Translations under genes and position numbers: made by a program | In this document: positions 1,022 to 51,145 of the stretch, piece by piece | How positions within the stretch are numbered: the stretch's first letter is position 1 | How the letters are laid out: every line of letters starts with the position of its first letter | The notes under the pieces: model-generated | Database searches by the model: none | What the model was told of the DNA's origin: nothing | Seen by the model: only the letters and a program-made list of their open reading frames with translations | Assembly: GCA_037200925.1 (NCBI GenBank) | Contig: JBBCGO010000001.1 | Coordinates: 824,235 to 888,234, forward strand | DNA from: Candidatus Doudnabacteria bacterium | GTDB lineage: Bacteria > Patescibacteriota > Doudnabacteria > UBA920 > O2-02-FULL-48-8 | DNA length: 64,000 nucleotides | Direction: 5' to 3'

Positions 1022-1113
1022 CTGACGCCAATCTGACCTCTTGAAATCCTGAGCAAAATCTGTTAAAATTGCTCTGCGTTCGGGCGTAGCTCAGCGGTAG
1101 AGCAGCTGACTGT

Positions 1114-1670
1114 GAACAAGTTCTTAAAGGCGGCATAAAGGTCTTATTTATGCCAAAATCTAATAGAACATATTCCGACCGTTCTCAATATATAATCCAA
1201 GCTGTGACCAAACGCCGTAAAAAGCTTCGGGAGATGGCAAGGACATATAAAGGCGGTAAGTGTATGATCTGTGGTTATGATCGTTACTTGGGTGCATTGG
1301 ACTTTCATCATCTTGATCCTTCCAAGAAAAAATTTGGTATTTCCATGAATGGACTCACTAAATCTTGGGAAAAGATTAGGATTGAGTTGGATAAATGTAT
1401 TCTGATTTGCGCCAATTGCCACAGGGAATTACATGCAGGAGTATTGCAGCTTCCTGGTGAAAGCCAGGTTGAAAAACGAGGTGAATTCGGGGAAGTCCAA
1501 TCTTCTGAAAAGTTGTTGGATAATCCCGAGCCAAGCGCAGACAATTTGTCTGTGAAGGTGTAGAGACTATCCCGACAGGGAGTAGTCCTTGCAGGAATGC
1601 AAGGCCGAAGCGCCTCGGACCTTAAACGGTTATGATATAGTCCATACTAAAGGTAACTTTAGATAAAATG
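1114..1670 (+). mobile_element. Group-I-like intron carrying an HNH homing-endonuclease ORF
   Basis: The 5' exon ends in U and the intervening sequence ends in G (omega-G). A P7-like pair GACTAT (1564-1569) and ATAGTC (1636-1641) sits in a context GATATAGTCC resembling the Tetrahymena P7 3' strand GAUAUAGUCGG. P8- and P9-like hairpins lie at 1587-1604 and 1644-1660. A candidate internal guide GCGG is at 1127-1130. The ORF occupies the 5' two thirds. Confidence 0.6.
1150..1563 (+). CDS. HNH homing endonuclease (intron-encoded)
   Basis: CMICGY...HHLDP...CANCHRELH is an HNH zinc-finger nuclease motif. The ORF lies wholly inside the tRNA intervening sequence. Confidence 0.8.
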   Translation: MPKSNRTYSDRSQYIIQAVTKRRKKLREMARTYKGGKCMICGYDRYLGALDFHHLDPSKKKFGISMNGLTKSWEKIRIELDKCILICANCHRELHAGVLQLPGESQVEKRGEFGEVQSSEKLLDNPEPSADNLSVKV

Positions 1671-1711
1671 TAATCAGCGGGTCGCTGGTTCGAATCCAGC
1701 CGCCCGAGCCA

Positions 1712-1823: not shown

Positions 1824-3965
1824 TTATCTGACCTGATTGACAGTGAACTGGGCCTGGCCCGATGTCACGACCATGGAGCCGATCGCCTTATTGACGATCG
1901 ATTTGAGGTTTGCATTAATTTCGCAGATGCTCTCCTGGACTTCCCCCGGTCTGATAATCGCGTTTATCCCGTCGGTGTAGATGATGAGAGCGGTTACGTC
2001 TGTTGGCCCTGGTACGTAGCTTGCATGCGCGTTCGCATCATTGATCATCTGCTGCGCCGCAGTACTGATGCCGAACTGAGGACTCGGATCCCCAACTAGC
2101 GCCCAGATAGCTGTCTGCACATCCTTCACAAAATCGAGGTCGGATTTACCGGCTCCGCGGATCTTGTGGTTGAGCGTGTAGTTGACCTTGTTCCAGGCCA
2201 GAACAGCGACATCGGCAGGCAAACTACCGGCAGTAGTCGAGTACAGATGCGCTGACTGGTTGTGCAGGTCAGTGGGCACGCCATCCTGTATGCACCAGCA
2301 CTTATAGGTGCTGTCGGGCACATTGGCACCGGCACCCGTGATAGCAGTGTCTTGCGAGCTATTGGCGAATCCCAGCCAGGCCCCGGTGTTTATGTTCGCC
2401 GTGACCCCCTGTATCCAGTTCGTCACGCTACCCAGATCAGAGGCCTGCGTAACGTAGTTCTTCGTGCAGGTGAAGGTCGCGCCAGGAAGTATGATCGTCG
2501 CTATTGATCCGCAGGTAAATGTACCGAGTTTGTCATCGTTAATCGTGAATGGGCCGGTAAGCGGCATGTTGCCGTTGTCGGTCAACGCATAGGTATAGAC
2601 AATCGTCTGGCCGGCGGCAGAGTAAGTAATCGGGTTCGCCGACTTGTTCAGTGACAGGCTGAATGCAGGGGGGACTTGTACGACTAGGGAATTAGCGACC
2701 GTGCAGGTGGCCTGACTGCCAGCCACGACAGAAACCGAAGAGCAGGTGCTGGAGTTCTGTGTCCAGCCGGCCTGCGGGGTTTCCGTGATGGAATACGTTC
2801 CGGGCATGACCGCGGAGAACGTTTTTGTACCGCTGTTGGCAGTCGTGGTGATGACAAAGCTCGTGTTGCCCGGTATATTGCTGGTGAAGTTGAATGTGCC
2901 GTCAACGCCGCTGGTTGTCTTTGTGACTACCAGCGTCCCGGTTGTGGGAGGAGGAGTGCCTGGGCACGATGATGGGTTAAATGTGTCTGCGGCAGTCGTC
3001 ACGGTTCCGCCAAATGCCAAGGCCCGGCCATTCCATGTTACTTGGTTGCCTACGGTAATAGCCGTACCAATGACAGTTCCTGCAAACGTCGAGTTGGCGC
3101 CAAGGGTAGTGGCCCCAGTTGGGGTCCAAAACACATCGCAGACTGTTGCGCCGGGTGAAAATGTGACGGAAGAGGCGGCTGTAGTATTAAGCGCGCCAAC
3201 CATCCGAAAGAGGTATTGTCCGCTACCCCTAATGGTAATTCCCGGTGCTCCTACTGAAGCCGCGCCTGTAATACAATAGACTCCGGGTTCTAGCGGTTGC
3301 GGTAGTGCACTTAGGACAGTGGCAGCACCAAAATTGAAATCACAGGGTTGATCATTCAAGATCGCCAAAGCAGCGGCCTGATCTGCGCCTGCTTGGAGAT
3401 AAACTGGGTCAGGGGCCACGTAGGTTGTGCCATTCACTACGGGTGACATGGCGGGCGGGACAGTGTATCCTAGGTTTCCATTGATAATAGTTCCTGGTGC
3501 CGCGTTGGCCAAGGTACCGGTCAGAACCCTGAATGTGGCCGCAGCCCCAAGAGACGGAGGAAGCGTGGGGGGTATATCGTCATTGGTGACAGTGCAGGTT
3601 TTGGTCTCGAATGGGGACAAGGTGCCTGTGCAGTCAGCGGAAAAAGTGGCGGTATAGCTGGAAGGACCCGTTTCAATCACGCTGTAAAAAGAGTCATCCT
3701 GGATAGTGACTAAAACTCCCGGTGATTCTACGCCAGGGAAAGTAGTGGGCGTCCCAATAACTCCATTAACCGTCATTGTGAAATCAGAGGCAACCGCAGT
3801 GCCGCCGTTATCATTTATGACGTGTTTAATGACATTCAGAAAAGCTGGGGGTTGAAATGCAGCTTCCGCAGGGATAAGCCTTGCAAGACCGAATAAAATG
3901 GGCAGAACTAAGACGGCTAGTGCAACTGCCATTGCACTCTTTTTAAGAATTATGGTTTTACTCAT
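1824..3965 (-). CDS. Secreted surface protein with an ice-binding-like (DUF3494) beta-helix domain and Ig/prealbumin-like repeat domains
   Basis: N-terminal signal or TM segment. The central region (TFRVLTGTLANAAPGTIINGNLG...QAGADQAAALAILN...GVYCITGAASVGAPGITI...VFWTPTGATTLGANSTFAGTVIG...GRALAFGGTVTT) matches the DUF3494/IBP signature. A following TGTLVVTKTTSGVDGTFNF...ITETPQAGW segment resembles SpaA/DUF11-type domains. Confidence 0.6.
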   Translation of the reverse strand: MSKTIILKKSAMAVALAVLVLPILFGLARLIPAEAAFQPPAFLNVIKHVINDNGGTAVASDFTMTVNGVIGTPTTFPGVESPGVLVTIQDDSFYSVIETGPSSYTATFSADCTGTLSPFETKTCTVTNDDIPPTLPPSLGAAATFRVLTGTLANAAPGTIINGNLGYTVPPAMSPVVNGTTYVAPDPVYLQAGADQAAALAILNDQPCDFNFGAATVLSALPQPLEPGVYCITGAASVGAPGITIRGSGQYLFRMVGALNTTAASSVTFSPGATVCDVFWTPTGATTLGANSTFAGTVIGTAITVGNQVTWNGRALAFGGTVTTAADTFNPSSCPGTPPPTTGTLVVTKTTSGVDGTFNFTSNIPGNTSFVITTTANSGTKTFSAVMPGTYSITETPQAGWTQNSSTCSSVSVVAGSQATCTVANSLVVQVPPAFSLSLNKSANPITYSAAGQTIVYTYALTDNGNMPLTGPFTINDDKLGTFTCGSIATIILPGATFTCTKNYVTQASDLGSVTNWIQGVTANINTGAWLGFANSSQDTAITGAGANVPDSTYKCWCIQDGVPTDLHNQSAHLYSTTAGSLPADVAVLAWNKVNYTLNHKIRGAGKSDLDFVKDVQTAIWALVGDPSPQFGISTAAQQMINDANAHASYVPGPTDVTALIIYTDGINAIIRPGEVQESICEINANLKSIVNKAIGSMVVTSGQAQFTVNQVR

Positions 3966-39471: not shown

Positions 39472-40833
39472 TTAATAAGGAGCAGCGCCCGGGGATCCGT
39501 AAAACCATTGCAGATTATCTCCCGCATGTAATGTAAAATCAGCCGCACCTAAATTGGGAACAGTTCCATTGACTGCAAATTGCCAGCCGCTGGAACCGAC
39601 CGGATCGTAGCCGTCAATACTTTGCACAAACTGGCCTAATCCAGTTTGTTTTATTACATACAAGAGGTTGATCTGACTGCAGGCGCTGATCAGCGCCTGC
39701 AGTGCAGTCGGGCTGTTTGCAGTTGTGCCGTCAAAAATCTTGTTGCCGGGATAAGCAATAGTGACATGTGTTCCTCCCGCAGCCGGAGTCTGATAAATAT
39801 TAGGTGTAGGATATGGCGTAGGGTAAGGGGTTGCATAAGGAGTAGCATAGGGCGTTGAATAGATGCCGGGAGTTTGATACGGAGTCGCGTAAGGCGTTGA
39901 ATAAACAGTTGGAGTCTCATATGGCGTAAGGTAAGGGGTTGCATAAGGAGTAGCATAGGGAGTGGCATAAGGAGTAGCATAGGGAGTCGGATACGGGCTT
40001 GGATAAGGCGTTTGATAATTTGATACGGTATTTATCGGCAGAGTATGTCCGGAAAGAGCGATCACAGCATATGCCGTGACCAATCCGGAGCCGCTGGAGT
40101 CTGAAGGATGCCATTTAAAAGTTCCGTCGGAAAGCTGAAGGCTGCTTAAAAAAGCCGTGGCAGAGGCCGGAATGGGCTGGCCTGCGGCTAAAAGGCCCCA
40201 CATAACCCAGGCTGTGGATGCTCCGTCAGCTGACTGTCCCGAAGAAAATCCGTAGCCTCCGGAAGAATCTTGGGATTGGCTGAGGTAATTCACAGCATTA
40301 TTCGGCGACCCGCCGGTGGCAGCCAGGGCTGCAATAGCCGCGGCAGTGGTATTGGAATCAGAGCCCACCCCTGTCGCATACCCCCAGCCGCCGTCGGAAT
40401 TCTGGTGAGACAGAATAAATTGGCGGGAGGAAGAAACAGTGGCATCGCTGATGCCTGCCGAAGCCAAAGCAAGCACGCCGAAAATATCGTCATTGATCAG
40501 GCTTGCGTCGCCGATCTGACCTCCGGAAGACATGCTTTCAAGCTTGGAGACAAAATTCTCAGAGCCGATAGTTGACGGATTGCCGCCGGTGGCAGTGATG
40601 GCCAAGATCCGTTTTTCGTAGTCTGTGGCTATGTTTGAATTCAGGGGAGCGGCCAGAAAACTTTGGCCCAAGTTTTGGCCGACTGAGGCATAAGCCATGA
40701 TAGCCCATTCGTCATTGGCGGGAAGTGTGGCAACGGCCTGCTGTAAATTAGCCGCGTCGGCAAGATTATTGGTAGCTAAAACAGCAACTGCAAATGCCGA
40801 AATAACCGTGAGAATTATTTTTTTGTACTTCAT
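39472..40833 (-). CDS. Secreted protein: prenyltransferase/terpene-cyclase-like alpha/alpha-toroid repeats plus TPY-rich linker plus C-terminal DUF4430 (transcobalamin-like architecture)
   Basis: Signal peptide. Repeats QNSDGGWGY...TAAAIAAL, QDSSGGYGF...TAWVMWGLLAAG, QLSDGTFKW. The (T/S)PY(A/P) linker repeats over ten times. The C-terminus ALISACSQINLLYVIKQTGLGQFVQSIDGYDPVGSSGWQFAVNG...HAGDNLQWFY is DUF4430-like. Confidence 0.55.
   Translation of the reverse strand: MKYKKIILTVISAFAVAVLATNNLADAANLQQAVATLPANDEWAIMAYASVGQNLGQSFLAAPLNSNIATDYEKRILAITATGGNPSTIGSENFVSKLESMSSGGQIGDASLINDDIFGVLALASAGISDATVSSSRQFILSHQNSDGGWGYATGVGSDSNTTAAAIAALAATGGSPNNAVNYLSQSQDSSGGYGFSSGQSADGASTAWVMWGLLAAGQPIPASATAFLSSLQLSDGTFKWHPSDSSGSGLVTAYAVIALSGHTLPINTVSNYQTPYPSPYPTPYATPYATPYATPYATPYLTPYETPTVYSTPYATPYQTPGIYSTPYATPYATPYPTPYPTPNIYQTPAAGGTHVTIAYPGNKIFDGTTANSPTALQALISACSQINLLYVIKQTGLGQFVQSIDGYDPVGSSGWQFAVNGTVPNLGAADFTLHAGDNLQWFYGSPGAAPY
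39780..40015. repeat. Imperfect 12-nt tandem DNA repeat encoding the ATPY/TPY linker
   Basis: GCATAAGGAGTAGCATAGGGAGT... periodicity on the plus strand. Confidence 0.55.
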
Positions 40834-41300: not shown

Positions 41301-41895
41301 TAAAAATAAAAACCGCTTTCTCCTGCTCGGGAGTAGCTAAGATAAATTGAATTCATATTTGGTTTTCCGGCTATACGGTTGCGGCACAGCGGAGGACTTG
41401 CACCTCACTTACCCGAAATGAATTACTTACAGAGTTAAAGAACGTAAACAAATACTAAATCTAAAAAAAAAGCCTGTCAAATCGACAACATAAAAACCAG
41501 GTGAGAGAACCTGGTCTTTATGTGTGTCGAAAGCCGTGCTTGGAAAATTACGATTTTGGTAACTCCAGGTCGTGAGCTTTCAATTTTGGTATCCCCGGTC
41601 CAGAACAAATCTTCGGTGGTTAAGCCTAATGATTGGGTTCCAGGCTGGAAATAAGCGAATTCAAAAAAGCGGTCTTTGTGTTTCAGCAGGGAAGAGAGGC
41701 GATAGGATTAGGTACAAACTTAAACCATCCTTCATATGTTAGGATCGTTTGCTTGTTTATTGCCTGTGCCCTGTAGCCATGTTTTTGTTTTGTCTTTGTT
41801 TCCGCTCGAGTACTTTACTCTATGTACATTATAGCAGAAAAAGTCGGACTTGTCCAGACCCTACGTAAAAAATCTCAAAAACCGGGAAATTTTAC

Positions 41896-43884: not shown

Positions 43885-44268
43885 GGGGCTGCTCAGATTC
43901 GACAGAAGTTCTTTGATAAATATTGCAAGTCCGATTAGCCTAATTTCTCGGTTAAAAAAACAAGGCAAATCATAAATGCCAATTCTTTGGTAAGCAAGGT
44001 TAAGAATGCTTTTGCATTCTCTCCTGCTTTGGCTCTCGCTTAATACGTGAAAGCCCATCCGCCCCGCAAAGTCTGTGCGCGGGATACGGGTGTTATATTA
44101 TCCGGACTCACTTTAGCTGGCGCCTGACGGCTTTAGGACACTAAGGGCTTAACTTAAACCGCTTTCGTCCGTTTTTATGGTTTGAGCCAACAATTCAAGC
44201 GGTCCAAACTTGTAGATATATTTGTTAAAATCTTTTGGACGGGAGTGCAATTCTCCCCAGCTCCACCA
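43885..44268 (+). ncRNA. ssrA: tmRNA (SsrA)
   Basis: 5' GGGGCUGCUCAGAUUCGACAGAAG, 3' ...GGACGGGAGUGCAAUUCUCCCCAGCUCCACCA. Acceptor stem with the G3-U70 wobble, T-arm and CCA. Internal reading frame ...GCU UUU GCA UUC UCU CCU GCU UUG GCU CUC GCU UAA (tag ...AFAFSPALALA). Convergent with smpB. Confidence 0.85.
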
Positions 44269-47802: not shown

Positions 47803-50800
47803 ATGAAGCAAACTTTTAAACCAATCGATCCGAAGCCTGACTTTCCCAAACTTGAGGAAGAGGTCTTAAAGTTTTGGGAAGACAATCAGATCTTCCAAAA
47901 ATCTTTGGAGCAGACGAAAAACGGCAAGCCGTACGTTTTTTATGACGGCCCGCCGTTTGCTACAGGTACACCGCATTACGGACATATTTTAGGTTCAACT
48001 GTAAAGGACCTGTTTCCGCGCTATCAGACTATGAACGGAAGATTTGTCCGCCGCCGCTGGGGCTGGGACTGCCATGGCCTGCCGATAGAAGAGATAGTTG
48101 AGCGGAAATTGGGGATCTCAGGCAAAAAGGACATTGAGAAGCTGGGCATAAAAAAATTCAACGAAACCTGCCGCTCAATGGTTTTGGAATATGTGGGCGA
48201 GTGGCGGAAGACCATCCGCCGAATTGCGCGCTGGGTTGATTTTGATAATTCTTACAAAACCATGGATCGCGACTACATGGAGTCCGTCTGGTGGGCATTC
48301 AAACAGATCTATGACAAAGGGTTGGTTTACGAAGGCCGCCGGGTGCTTCTTTATTGTCCTCGTTGCGAAACGCCGGTTTCAAATTTTGAAGTGGCTATGG
48401 ATAACAGTTATCAGGAAGTCACAGAAGAAGCGGTAACCGTAAAATTCAAAATCCAAAAGCAGAAGAACACTTATTTATTGGCCTGGACGACCACCCCCTG
48501 GACTTTGCCGGGCAATGTGGCCTTGGCTGTGGGTGCGGATATTGATTACGTAAAAGTTAAAGCAGGCGATGAGTTCTATATTTTGGCAAAAAAAACTGAA
48601 TAAAGACGGGACAATTATTGAAGAATTCAAAGGCTCCAAACTTGTCGGCTTGGAATACGAACCGTTATTTGATGTGCCTGATGTGAGATCAGACAAGTCA
48701 TTTAAAATTTATGCGGCTGACTTTGTGAATACCGAAGACGGCACCGGGGTCGTGCACACGGCCGTGGTTTACGGTGAAGATGACTATGATCTGGGGCTGA
48801 AAGTCGGTTTGCCCGTGGTTCCTTTGCTTGATGAAAAAGGAAAGTTTAATGATAAGGCGCCGAAGTTATTGCAAGGCGTATATTTTAAAGATTCGGAAAA
48901 AATCATTAAGAAAGACCTTGAGGGCAGGGGATTGTTGTTTGCAAAAAATCAGCACAAACATTCTTATCCGCATTGCTGGCGCTGTGGTACGACGCTTTAT
49001 TACAATGCCATCCCGGCCTGGTTCATGAATATCCAAAAGATCAAGAAAGGCCTTTTGGAAACAAATGACAAAGAGATCAACTGGTTCCCCGAGCATCTGA
49101 AACACGGCCGGTACGAAAAAAGCGTGGAAGCAGCCCCTGACTGGAATATTTCCCGCAACCGATACTGGGGCAACCCGATCCCGGTCTGGAAGTGCGAAGA
49201 CGGGCACAATACCGTGGTTGGCAGTATCAAGGATCTGGGTTTGGAAAGAAATACTTTTTATTTTTCAAGACACGGCCAAGCTGACCTGAACCTTACGATG
49301 GTGGCCAGTAATTATCCGGAAATTGTTATCAGCAGCCTGACTGATGAAGGAAAAAAACAAGCCGAAGCATTAGCGAATGACCTCCGGAAGAGCGGTGGTG
49401 TTGATCTGATATTTTCATCTGATTTGAAACGGACAAAGGAGACCGCAGAAATTGTCGGAAAATTACTCGGAGTTAAAGTGGTCGAGGATGAACGACTGAG
49501 GGAATACAATGTCGGCACATATAACGGCAAACCGGACGCTGACTATGACCGCGATTTTCCTGTTGAAGTGCGGTGGGATAAAGCCGCTCCCCAAGGGGAA
49601 ACCTGGAAGCAATTGCAAGAGCGGATGGTTGATTTTACTGAAGAAATCAATAAAAAATATCAAGATAAAAAAATACTCGTTGTTTCGCACGGCGACGCGC
49701 TATGGATGCTACAGAAATATTTTGGGTCAGAGCGAGAATACCCGAAGTTTGGCCAAGTTTTTGAAGTGTCCGTCAGCGTAACGGATCTGCACCGGCCGTA
49801 TATTGATGACATCGTTTTGAAGTGCAAACAATGCGGCAAGGACTCTCATAGAACGCCGGAAATCTTTGATTCCTGGGTGGAGGCCGGTTCCATGCCATTT
49901 GCGGAATATCATTATCCAATTGATCAGAAAGAAACATTTGAGTCACGCTTTCCGGCCCAGTTCATCTCCGAGTATATTGCCCAGACCAGAGCCTGGTTTT
50001 ACGTCATGCATGTCATCTCTTACAATTTATTCGGTAAAGCGCCGTTTGAAAACGTGGCGACCACAGGCACTATTCTGGCTGAAGACGGCGACAAGATGAG
50101 CAAGTCAAAAAATAACTATCCCGACCCTTGGATCGTGATCGATAAATATGGCGTGGATGCCCTGAGATTTTATCTAATGAATTCTTCTGTCATGAACGCT
50201 GACAATTTGAACTTCAGTGAGAAGGAATTGGGGGTTGTTTACCGCAAAAATATTCTGATCCTTTGGAATATTTATAATTATTTTGTGACTTATGCCAATG
50301 AAGCTGATTGGGAGCCGAAGGGACCCGGTTACAAACCGGATTTGACAAATGTTCTGGATCTTTGGATCGTAGCCAAGACACAAGATCTGGTAAACGAAGT
50401 TACGGAGCAGCTGGATAATTACAACACTGTGCGCGCAACGAGAGCGATAGAAAATTATATCAATGAACTTTCGACTTGGTATGTGAGAAGGAGCAGAGGA
50501 CGAAAAGACAGCCATTTCTTCGGTAGCCTCCGCCATGCGCTGATGGTTCTGGCAAAAGTTTCAGCTCCCGTAACGCCTTATCTGTCTGAACTGATCTACA
50601 GCAATTTGAATAAAAATCCGGATGTGATCTCGGTGCATCTGGCCAAGTGGCCGGAAAAGAAAGAGTTGACCGCTGAACAAAAAGAAATCTTGAGCCAGAT
50701 GCAGTTTGTCAGAGAAACGGTGGAACAAGGGCACGCGCTGCGGAAAAGATCAAACATAAAACTGCGCCAGCCTCTGGCCTCGGTTACCTATACGCTTAAA

Positions 50801-51145
50801 GATCAGTTATCAAAAGAATATGAGGATATTTTGGCTGACGAACTGAATGTCAAAGCCGTAAATTTCGGCAGCAAGCTTGAGTTTGATCTGAACATATCCC
50901 CGGAACTCAAAAAAGAAGGCTTAGCGCGCGAACTGGAACGGGCTGTTCAGGATATGCGCAAAAAGTCAGGCTTGCAGGTTGGCGAACAGGCCGATTTATC
51001 GTATGATACAGATGATGATGAATTAAAAGCCGCTTTTGAACTGTTCGACACCAAAAAGACTTATATCGGGAAGATTTCTCGGGAAAAGGGCGGAGAAATC
51101 GTTGAAATAGACGGGAAAAAAGCGGCGATTGCGTTAAAAAAGTGA
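47803..51145 (+). CDS. ileS: Isoleucine--tRNA ligase (eukaryote/archaeal-like type), interrupted by a +1 frameshift in an A8 tract and carrying an inserted histidine-phosphatase (PGM-like) domain
   Basis: HYGH, CP1/editing, KMSKS and C-terminal regions are all present. ORF1 (frame 1) ends ILAKKTE*. ORF2 (frame 2) continues FWQKKLNKDGTIIEEF. The two halves are colinear with a single IleS. Confidence 0.85.
48588..48595 (+). other. A8 homopolymer that is the site of the ileS frameshift
   Basis: GGCAAAAAAAACTG. Removing one A joins ...DEFYILAKK to LNKDGTIIEEFKGSKLVGLEYEPLF in one frame. Confidence 0.7.
49262..49780 (+). other. In-frame histidine-phosphatase (phosphoglycerate-mutase superfamily) domain inserted inside IleS
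   Basis: FSRHGQADLN (RHG motif) ... VVSHGDALWML (second catalytic His). It is flanked by IleS segments ...IPVWKCEDGHNTVVGSIKDLG and VTDLHRPYIDDIVLKCKQCG...FDSWVEAGSMPFAEYHYP, which are contiguous in other IleS proteins. Confidence 0.75.

Follow-up and report, generated by a model that had tools for sequence, protein, structure and literature searches.

A stretch of 64,000 nt from the forward strand of a Candidatus Doudnabacteria contig (JBBCGO010000001.1, positions 824,235 to 888,234; assembly GCA_037200925.1), hereafter the window, carries two halves of a tRNA-Asn(GUU) gene that lie 557 nt apart and enclose an open reading frame (ORF) for an HNH protein. This arrangement raises the question of whether the gene still gives rise to a tRNA and, if so, how the intervening DNA is removed and how it came to be there. 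On the evidence set out below, the locus is very probably a functional tRNA-Asn(GUU) gene into which a mobile, self-splicing group I intron (subgroup IA) has inserted between U35 and U36.

A split tRNA-Asn gene and its ribozyme

ARAGORN in default mode returned a single match in the 64 kb, a transfer-messenger RNA (tmRNA), and called no tRNA. In intron mode, it reported tRNA-Asn(gtt), interrupted after position 35 by an intron of 557 nt, consistent with a preliminary description of this DNA, which had recognized the two halves and suggested such an intron-aware scan. When the 5' exon (1080-1113, plus strand, tRNA positions 1-35) was joined to the 3' exon (1671-1711, plus strand, from U36 onward), ARAGORN folded a canonical 75-nt cloverleaf with the anticodon loop CUGUUAA, U1-A72, G73 at 1708 and an encoded CCA at 1709-1711. 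The loop, the terminal pair and G73 had all been named in that description and are seen on the joined exons. Exon 1 ends in C32-U33-G34-U35 and exon 2 begins with U36-A37-A38, which sets the insertion site at anticodon 35/36; as had been proposed, the intron follows a U and ends in G, and the sequence and ARAGORN agree on these boundaries. Within the 64-kb window, the split gene is the sole tRNA-Asn and no other tRNA gene was detected.

The gene is flanked by candidate signals for its own transcription. A sigma-70-like promoter candidate on the plus strand (1041-1069; TTGAAA, a 17-nt spacer and TAAAAT, with TG ahead of the -10 element; 10 of 12 consensus matches) ends 10 nt 5' of the tRNA, but it is no more than a consensus match, as many such sites being present in the region as shuffling leads one to expect. 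Downstream, the sequence contains a bidirectional intrinsic terminator at 1722-1750 (GCCGAC-CUUGU-GUCGGC with A- and U-run flanks) that is common to the tRNA gene and a convergent gene for a 713-aa protein.

The intervening sequence runs on the plus strand from G1114 to its last base, omega-G, at 1670. The preliminary description had called it group I-like and proposed a comparison with the Rfam model RF00028. This model matched 1432-1663 over its full length (model positions 1-253) with 57.9 bits against a gathering score of 50 (E = 4.2e-12). The last 265 nt of 65 related introns gave a good alignment, in which a model of helices P2-P9 had standard pairs in 91.6% of cells, compared with 31-48% when the 3' partners were slid by 1-3 columns. 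Compensatory changes on both sides occurred in 31 of the 45 model pairs, and none of 500 shuffles reached the observed covariation score. The terminal G (aligned position 265, window 1670) was invariant in all 65 introns.

The individual helices, all on the plus strand, follow the order of a group I core. P2 (1453-1468) is a 6-bp hairpin with a GAAA (GNRA) loop, paired in 98.9% of cells and with compensatory changes in five of six pairs. It is followed by P3 (1477-1483/1611-1617; 98.0% paired, five of seven pairs compensatory), the A-rich J3/4 (1484-1486) and the P4-P5 region (1487-1529, which includes J4/5 and J5/4). There, P4 (1487-1492/1524-1529), located by RF00028, is paired in 98-100% of cells with compensation in five of six pairs, and P5 (1496-1500/1516-1520) in 71.6%, its variable loop aligning poorly. 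P6 (1530-1532/1557-1559) is paired in 99.5% of cells and is extended by P6a (1536-1542/1548-1554), which was read from the sequence. J6/7, GUAGA (1560-1564; from sequence and RF00028), holds the UAG stop codon of the HNH ORF at 1561-1563. The guanosine-binding helix P7, GACUA/UAGUC (1565-1569/1638-1642), lies in the context GAUAUAGUCC and all five of its pairs are invariant in the 65 sequences, so the P7-like pair of the preliminary description was correctly recognized.

The pair of hairpins that follows the 5' strand of P7 had been described as P8- and P9-like. They are instead P7.1 (1570-1581, loop GACA; 77.6% paired, four of four pairs compensatory) and P7.2 (1587-1604, loop GGAA; from the sequence only), into which a 39-nt insertion in the RF00028 alignment folds, exactly between P7 (5' strand) and P3 (3' strand). 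Such extra hairpins are the mark of subgroup IA in the Michel and Westhof classification. By its predicted P7.1/P7.2 architecture, the intron belongs to subgroup IA, as has been published for the family (PMC13011429). P8 itself is GACC/GGUU with the loop UUAAAC (1618-1631; 96.4% paired, two of three pairs compensatory). J8/7 and the 3' strand of P7, AUGAUAUAGUC (1632-1642), were placed by RF00028, alignment and covariation, and P9 (1647-1662) is a 6-bp hairpin with a GUAA (GNRA) loop and compensation in five of six pairs.

In further support of a self-splicing intron, the ribozyme part (1446-1670) aligns collinearly, at 68% identity, with the tRNA-Asn intron of GCA_016700035.1, which self-splices precisely at 35/36 in vitro (PMC13011429). 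Because this relative is a validated intron, the earlier reading of the locus was essentially correct, and it also follows that the class has already been published. The same ribozyme part is 72% identical to a Paceibacteria copy that lacks a homing endonuclease gene (HEG).

The HNH gene in the P1 loop

The 5' strand of P1 consists of exon CUGU and intron GA (1110-1115, plus strand), with U1113 in a wobble G.U pair at the 5' splice site, and the 3' strand is the internal guide sequence UUGCAG (1444-1449, plus strand). Here GCAG (1446-1449) pairs with exon C32-U33-G34-U35, the wobble being U1113.G1446, and GCAGCUUCC, directly 5' of P2, is nearly invariant in the 65 introns. In addition, the first intron base covaries with the base 5' of GCAG: among 63 introns the pair is G-C in 40, A-U in 19, G.U in one (the window) and mismatched in three. 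The guide sequence lies ~330 nt downstream from the 5' splice site. In tRNA-Asn introns that lack a HEG, among them the self-splicing one, the GCAGC element stands 5-30 nt after the splice site, just before P2, which indicates that the HNH gene is an insertion of ~330 nt in the P1 loop. A local P1 through GCGG at 1130-1133 was considered and rejected, because relatives do not conserve this motif, and in them the base facing U-1 would be G, A, U or C; the near-invariant distal GCAG, which also serves as guide in HEG-less copies, rules it out as well.

Within the P1 loop, an 8-bp hairpin, GGCAUAAA/UUUAUGCC (1132-1154, plus strand; -9.7 kcal/mol, z = -2.83), buries the AUG of the HNH gene (1150-1152). 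The preliminary description had placed the start of the ORF in a P2-like hairpin. We rejected this identification, as the true P2 directly follows the guide sequence at 1453-1468 and covaries strongly. The start-codon hairpin has an equivalent in relatives, where a compensated change can be seen by eye (GGUAUA/UAUGCC versus UGAUAUAA/UUAUGUCA).

In 30 of the 65 introns, the 5' strand of this hairpin is at the same time an extended -10-like box (TGnTATAAT or TGGTATACT) at intron positions 10-25 (in loci ranging from L005 to L079, for example L016, L041 and L068). L016 and L041 carry TGGTATAAT. No such box occurred beyond the first 80 nt of the 65 introns, and the shuffle mean was 0.7. The box may be an internal promoter of the endonuclease gene; together with the start-codon hairpin, such an extended -10 promoter may control endonuclease expression in the manner of phage T4.

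The HNH ORF (1150-1563, plus strand) encodes 137 aa and is judged from motif, homologues and dN/dS to be a probable homing endonuclease gene whose catalytic part covers approximately codons 1-96 and whose tail is encoded by the ribozyme. The residues C38, C41, H53, H54, C87, N89, C90 and H91 (CxxC...HH...CxNCH, comprising the HNH motif and zinc ligands) do not vary among 32 homologues. Matches to PHROG HNH families were found at 1.2e-29, and a PDB profile search recovered McrA and the HNH region of a group II intron maturase. This agrees with the HNH assignment made earlier. In NCBI, the identical protein appears as a stand-alone entry, 'HNH endonuclease signature motif containing protein' (MEJ0021850.1), and the same sequence also lies on a Logan contig of 40.9 kb (run SRR28211699).

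In this layout, protein and ribozyme share sequence. Wherever the frame could be traced, in 59 introns, it passes through the guide sequence, and this read-through accounts for an invariant Q100 and a near-invariant L101. In the window, the frame takes in guide sequence, P2 and P3-P6 and ends only at the UAG in J6/7, 41 codons into the ribozyme. Of the 59 frames, 27 stop in P2, 26 within P3-P6 and 5 beyond the 5' strand of P7, and the window alone has its stop in J6/7. The very compact layout inferred earlier therefore holds in that the non-conserved tail overlaps P3-P6; it needs correction in that the ORF sits in the P1 loop and also overlaps the guide sequence and P2.

Comparison with three close relatives (L002-L004) separates the two parts of the ORF. 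Codons 1-96 have a dN of 0.08-0.19 with saturated dS, which reveals selection on the protein. In the tail, dN (0.19-0.26) and dS (0.17-0.41) are roughly equal and both low, as is expected when the RNA and not the protein is constrained. A conserved protein role for the C-terminal tail was rejected on these values and on the scattered stop positions. ORFs that reach into an intron core tend to be under tight expression control that spares folding (Hausner et al. review, PMC3984707), a pattern into which the start-codon hairpin fits.

Related loci in bacteria and phages

To what extent is this arrangement shared by other organisms? Of 879 scored candidates, 874 were HNH homologues with E <= 1e-3, mostly from Patescibacteria, and at least 590 encoding loci turned up when one genome of each GTDB species was scanned. 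We applied a strict rule to the 80 best-matching species loci (5-bp anticodon stem, exon 1 ending in YTGT, intron ending in G, exon 2 starting with TAA, and a spliced ARAGORN call of tRNA-Asn). Under this rule, 64 of them hold a clean tRNA-Asn(GUU) gene with a 499-640-nt intron at 35/36, and these 64 genes also have U1-A72 and G73. The RF00028 threshold was passed by 16 of 20 related loci tested. Three related genome loci lack the intron. In one of them, from a bacterial metagenome-assembled genome (MAG), the HNH gene is free-standing (L080:1501-1889) with an intact, intron-less tRNA-Asn 18 nt downstream, a phage-like layout.

The hosts are not confined to Patescibacteria. HNH-bearing tRNA-Asn introns at 35/36 were found in Acidobacteriota and Nitrospirota (L050, L025, L052, L062-L064 and L078), among them a closed 5.54-Mb Pyrinomonadaceae chromosome (OY970389.1, L050), Blastocatellia contigs and Nitrospira contigs of 157-189 kb (L062-L064). 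The MAG labels of several loci, such as 'Gammaproteobacteria' or 'Methylomirabilota' on a 3-kb contig, are probably unreliable and were not used. A recent survey found subgroup IA introns at 35/36 with endonuclease genes only in Patescibacteria and considered horizontal transfer probably infrequent, with the caveat that draft genomes might alter this picture (PMC13011429). The loci in Acidobacteriota and Nitrospirota do alter this Patescibacteria-only distribution.

Relatives of the HNH protein are also widespread in phages. A scan of IMG/VR yielded at least 576 encoding loci, and 391 GenBank phage records contain a relative. The following counts concern the best 80 of the at least 576 viral loci (L082-L161). 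The phage homologues are 46-63% identical and are free-standing genes within tRNA arrays: three or more tRNAs were present in 70 of 83 loci scanned (the 80 viral loci and the three intron-less genome loci), and RF00028 found no group I intron in 20 phage loci, compared with 147 ordinary tRNA matches. In 50 of the 80 viral loci, tRNA-Asn(GUU) is the immediate neighbour within 400 nt (33 downstream, 22 upstream, 5 both), although the loci are related sequences and such adjacency counts are hence not independent observations. Asn makes up 13.5% of the 518 tRNAs in these loci, a share that is itself inflated by the adjacency. In ~20 phage loci, the stop codon of the ORF lies 10 nt inside the tRNA-Asn gene. 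Among cultured phages, Bacillus phage Bastille has the order tRNA-Asn, HNH (YP_006907301.1), tRNA-Asn, and in Klebsiella phage Muenster a tRNA-Asn precedes the HNH gene; the adjacency is absent in Bacteroides phage DAC15 and Acinetobacter phage Aci05. Phage loci with a free-standing homologue include NC_018856.1 (5857-6685) and MT708547.1 (303224-303917). ARAGORN's intron mode was noisy in such arrays, where it joined halves of neighbouring tRNAs into a spurious 'split tRNA' in 52 of the 80 phage loci.

In a crude neighbour-joining tree, 60 of 61 intron-encoded proteins formed one clade, with one viral sequence nested within it. It is possible, although on balance we lean slightly against it, that this HNH lineage targets tRNA-Asn genes in two states. 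It would be free-standing in phage tRNA arrays, where it abuts an intact tRNA-Asn(GUU), and intron-encoded after what seems a single invasion of the P1 loop of a subgroup IA intron at 35/36, followed by dispersal to at least 590 species-level genomes across Patescibacteria, Acidobacteriota and Nitrospirota. A free-standing endonuclease that is pre-adapted to an intron site is predicted by the 'collaborative homing' model (Bonocora & Shub 2009, via PMC3984707), though we infer rather than observe the match. If true, the two states would be a natural before-and-after case for this route to mobile introns, and they would contradict the published view of endonuclease-bearing tRNA introns as rare, confined to Patescibacteria and seldom transferred. 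In the papers searched on HNH genes in tRNA arrays, we did not find a tRNA-Asn preference or a kinship with the intron-encoded gene reported.

Competing explanations and known systems

In the explanation we favour, the tRNA-Asn gene would be transcribed as a single pre-tRNA, in which P1 would close a loop of ~330 nt holding the HNH gene and P2-P9 would build the catalytic core. Free guanosine bound in P7 would attack after U1113; omega-G1670 would then take its place, and exon ligation would restore the anticodon G34-U35-U36. The HNH protein would be translated from the intron RNA and would cleave tRNA-Asn genes that have no intron, close to the anticodon region, whereupon repair would copy the intron in (homing). 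The hairpin over the AUG probably keeps HNH translation low on the precursor, since the passage of ribosomes over guide sequence, P2 and P3-P6 would undo the ribozyme fold. While splicing of the window copy would be expected from its proven relative, we infer homing from the purifying selection on the protein, the single clade across phyla and the free-standing phage relatives beside tRNA-Asn.

Several features of the window copy weigh against this explanation. Its P1 has only four exon pairs and two intron pairs, its P10 of 2 bp is weak, as in most copies (2-4 bp), and P8, which is longer in most relatives of the 65-intron alignment, is minimal. The Pfam HNH model PF01844 scores 20.2 bits, short of its cut-off of 21.4 (E = 6.8e-4); several homologues carry a precomputed match to this model. 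At 1130-1141, the window has GGCAUAAAG in place of the -10-like box; the hairpin is retained and the box is lost or degenerate, so expression of the endonuclease may be low. An intron that still splices while its HNH protein no longer serves homing, being a decaying passenger or having another role such as an aid to RNA folding, would accommodate the missing box, which 30 of the 65 relatives possess, and the sub-threshold Pfam score. It would equally suit a start codon inside a stable hairpin, a frame that enters the ribozyme by 41 codons, and the fact that most tRNA introns have no endonuclease gene (PMC13011429). Yet the metal-binding and catalytic residues are all intact, codons 1-96 combine low dN with saturated dS, the closest relatives share 84-87% aa identity, and one intron-encoded clade over many lineages fits continued mobility. 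We therefore consider loss of homing unlikely, but the most serious rival.

Whether the gene is alive at all could be doubted on the ground that the tRNA scan covers 64 kb of a 964-kb contig, beyond which an intron-less copy might supply tRNA-Asn and leave the present locus a dead pseudogene with an inactive intron remnant. Such decay is very improbable in view of two perfect tRNA halves, a guide sequence and ribozyme helices that are all intact and match the covariation model, and a gene with its own promoter-like site and terminator; moreover, in complete Patescibacteria genomes a split tRNA-Asn is usually the sole copy (PMC13011429). The identity of the tRNA is a further point at which the locus could be misread, because ARAGORN and tFind often label members of this family tRNA-Thr(UGU) with an intron at 33/34. 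Among the 80 related loci, ARAGORN's intron mode gave Thr to 25, His to 3, Tyr to 1 and Ser to 1. We rejected these 30 labels as two-base boundary shifts, since most of them, including all among the 64 resolved loci, become Asn(GUU) 35/36 under the rule that the intron follows U-1 and ends in omega-G; Nakagawa et al. had warned of such mislabelling (PMC13011429). In the window, ARAGORN itself calls Asn, the tRNA body has U1-A72 and G73 as in other Asn genes, and a 33/34 boundary would end the intron in A rather than G, so that the same rule leaves only Asn 35/36. Given also that sequencing of the spliced product of a relative shows 35/36 (PMC13011429), a tRNA-Thr is hardly credible here.

If the split gene is the only tRNA-Asn(GUU) gene of the genome, Asn decoding would depend on the activity of a ribozyme. 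Where annotation misses such a tRNA-Asn, tRNA-based completeness estimates for the MAG are too low, and Thr, His, Tyr and Ser labels from ARAGORN at such loci are artefacts. As the class has been published, the window instance by itself adds little to the field. The comparative leads are of wider interest: endonuclease copies in hundreds of species from at least three phyla, an obligatory overlap of the guide sequence by the ORF, a start-codon hairpin accompanied by a conserved promoter-like box, and phage homologues next to tRNA-Asn all bear on the origin and spread of mobile group I introns.

Other features of the window were recorded alongside. The gene convergent on the tRNA (1824-3965, minus strand) encodes a secreted protein of an ice-binding family with SpaA-like and CLIPPER domains. 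The tmRNA gene lies at 43885-44268 (plus strand; RF00023, 111 bits) and encodes the tag peptide ANSLVSKVKNAFAFSPALALA. An AdoCbl-II cobalamin riboswitch (41352-41429, minus strand; 43.7 bits) stands upstream of an ORF (39472-40833, minus strand) with DUF4430 and prenyltransferase-like domains, which suggests B12-regulated uptake or binding in a bacterium of the Candidate Phyla Radiation. The isoleucyl-tRNA synthetase gene (47803-51145, plus strand) contains an inserted domain of the histidine phosphatase superfamily (PF00300, aa 231-403 of an 858-aa ORF), an architecture common to more than 100 Patescibacteria homologues of ~1120-1150 aa. In the window, it is divided between two ORFs that overlap but lie in different frames (47803-48603 and 48569-51145), which points to a frameshift or an assembly error. 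Replacement of the editing domain by the phosphatase domain is unsupported, as full-length homologues are ~270 aa longer at the N-terminus.

The closest known systems are the introns described by Nakagawa et al. (mSystems 2026, PMC13011429; preprint 10.1101/2025.07.03.662931), who found introns at 35/36 in 15 tRNA-Asn and 3 tRNA-Asp genes among 95 complete Patescibacteria genomes. Precise self-splicing was shown in vitro, and a change of omega-G to C blocks the exon ligation step; 25 of 28 introns at 35/36 are of subgroup IA, no Patescibacteria intron is IC, and four tRNA-Asn introns, all from Patescibacteria, carry HNH (PF01844) endonucleases (PMC13011429). The window copy resembles the tRNA-Asn members in host gene, site, U-1 and omega-G ends, IA architecture, a GCAGC guide beside P2, an HNH gene as in some copies (PF01844-type there), and a collinear ribozyme of 68-72% identity; its Doudnabacteria MAG is not among the tRNA-Asn intron genomes in Table 1 of that study. 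Even before, Williams (2020, bioRxiv 10.1101/2020.01.27.920355) had raised the number of known split-tRNA types from 4 to 21 and, according to PMC13011429, mapped the Asn 35/36 type with tFind as 'Asn.4Ug'. A split tRNA-Asn with an HNH-encoding intron is thus a published class, first described in 2025-2026 and mapped in a 2020 preprint, of which the window locus is a further example. The preliminary description had set the site apart from the classic tRNA introns; a subgroup IA intron at 35/36 does differ from the classic IC3 type, but the suggestion of novelty is outdated by these two works. What goes beyond PMC13011429 is the wide distribution of HNH-bearing copies, the Acidobacteriota and Nitrospirota hosts, the box with the hairpin, and the phage relatives. 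That study does not describe the position of the ORF in L1, its overlap with guide and core, the start-codon hairpin, the -10-like box or the phage kin.

The classic bacterial and plastid tRNA introns occupy other sites (34/35 in tRNA-Leu(UAA), 33/34 in tRNA-fMet, 36/37 in tRNA-Arg(CCU) and tRNA-Ile(CAU)), belong to subgroup IC3, have no P7.1/P7.2 and are mostly ORF-less (PMC13011429, 10.1101/2020.01.27.920355). The Synechocystis tRNA-fMet intron with its endonuclease (Bonocora & Shub 2001, cited in PMC3984707) is the functional model we propose for the window, although it differs in subgroup, tRNA and endonuclease family, which is PD-(D/E)XK (PMC13011429).

The introns of phages T4 and SPO1 (td/I-TevI, nrdB/I-TevIII and SPO1 I-HmuI) are, like that of the window, IA introns with homing endonucleases, of which I-TevIII and I-HmuI are HNH enzymes, but they interrupt protein-coding phage genes. 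Their ORFs occupy the loops of P6a or P9.1 instead of L1. Control of I-TevI combines an internal late promoter with a hairpin that covers the translation start, an arrangement that the start-codon hairpin and -10-like box of the window family resemble. Finally, the free-standing phage homologues have counterparts in T4 SegB, a homing endonuclease of a phage tRNA cluster (PMC2330249), and in the HNH genes of mycobacteriophage and mycobacterial tRNA arrays (PMC5966550, PMC6582537), which likewise reside within tRNA arrays.

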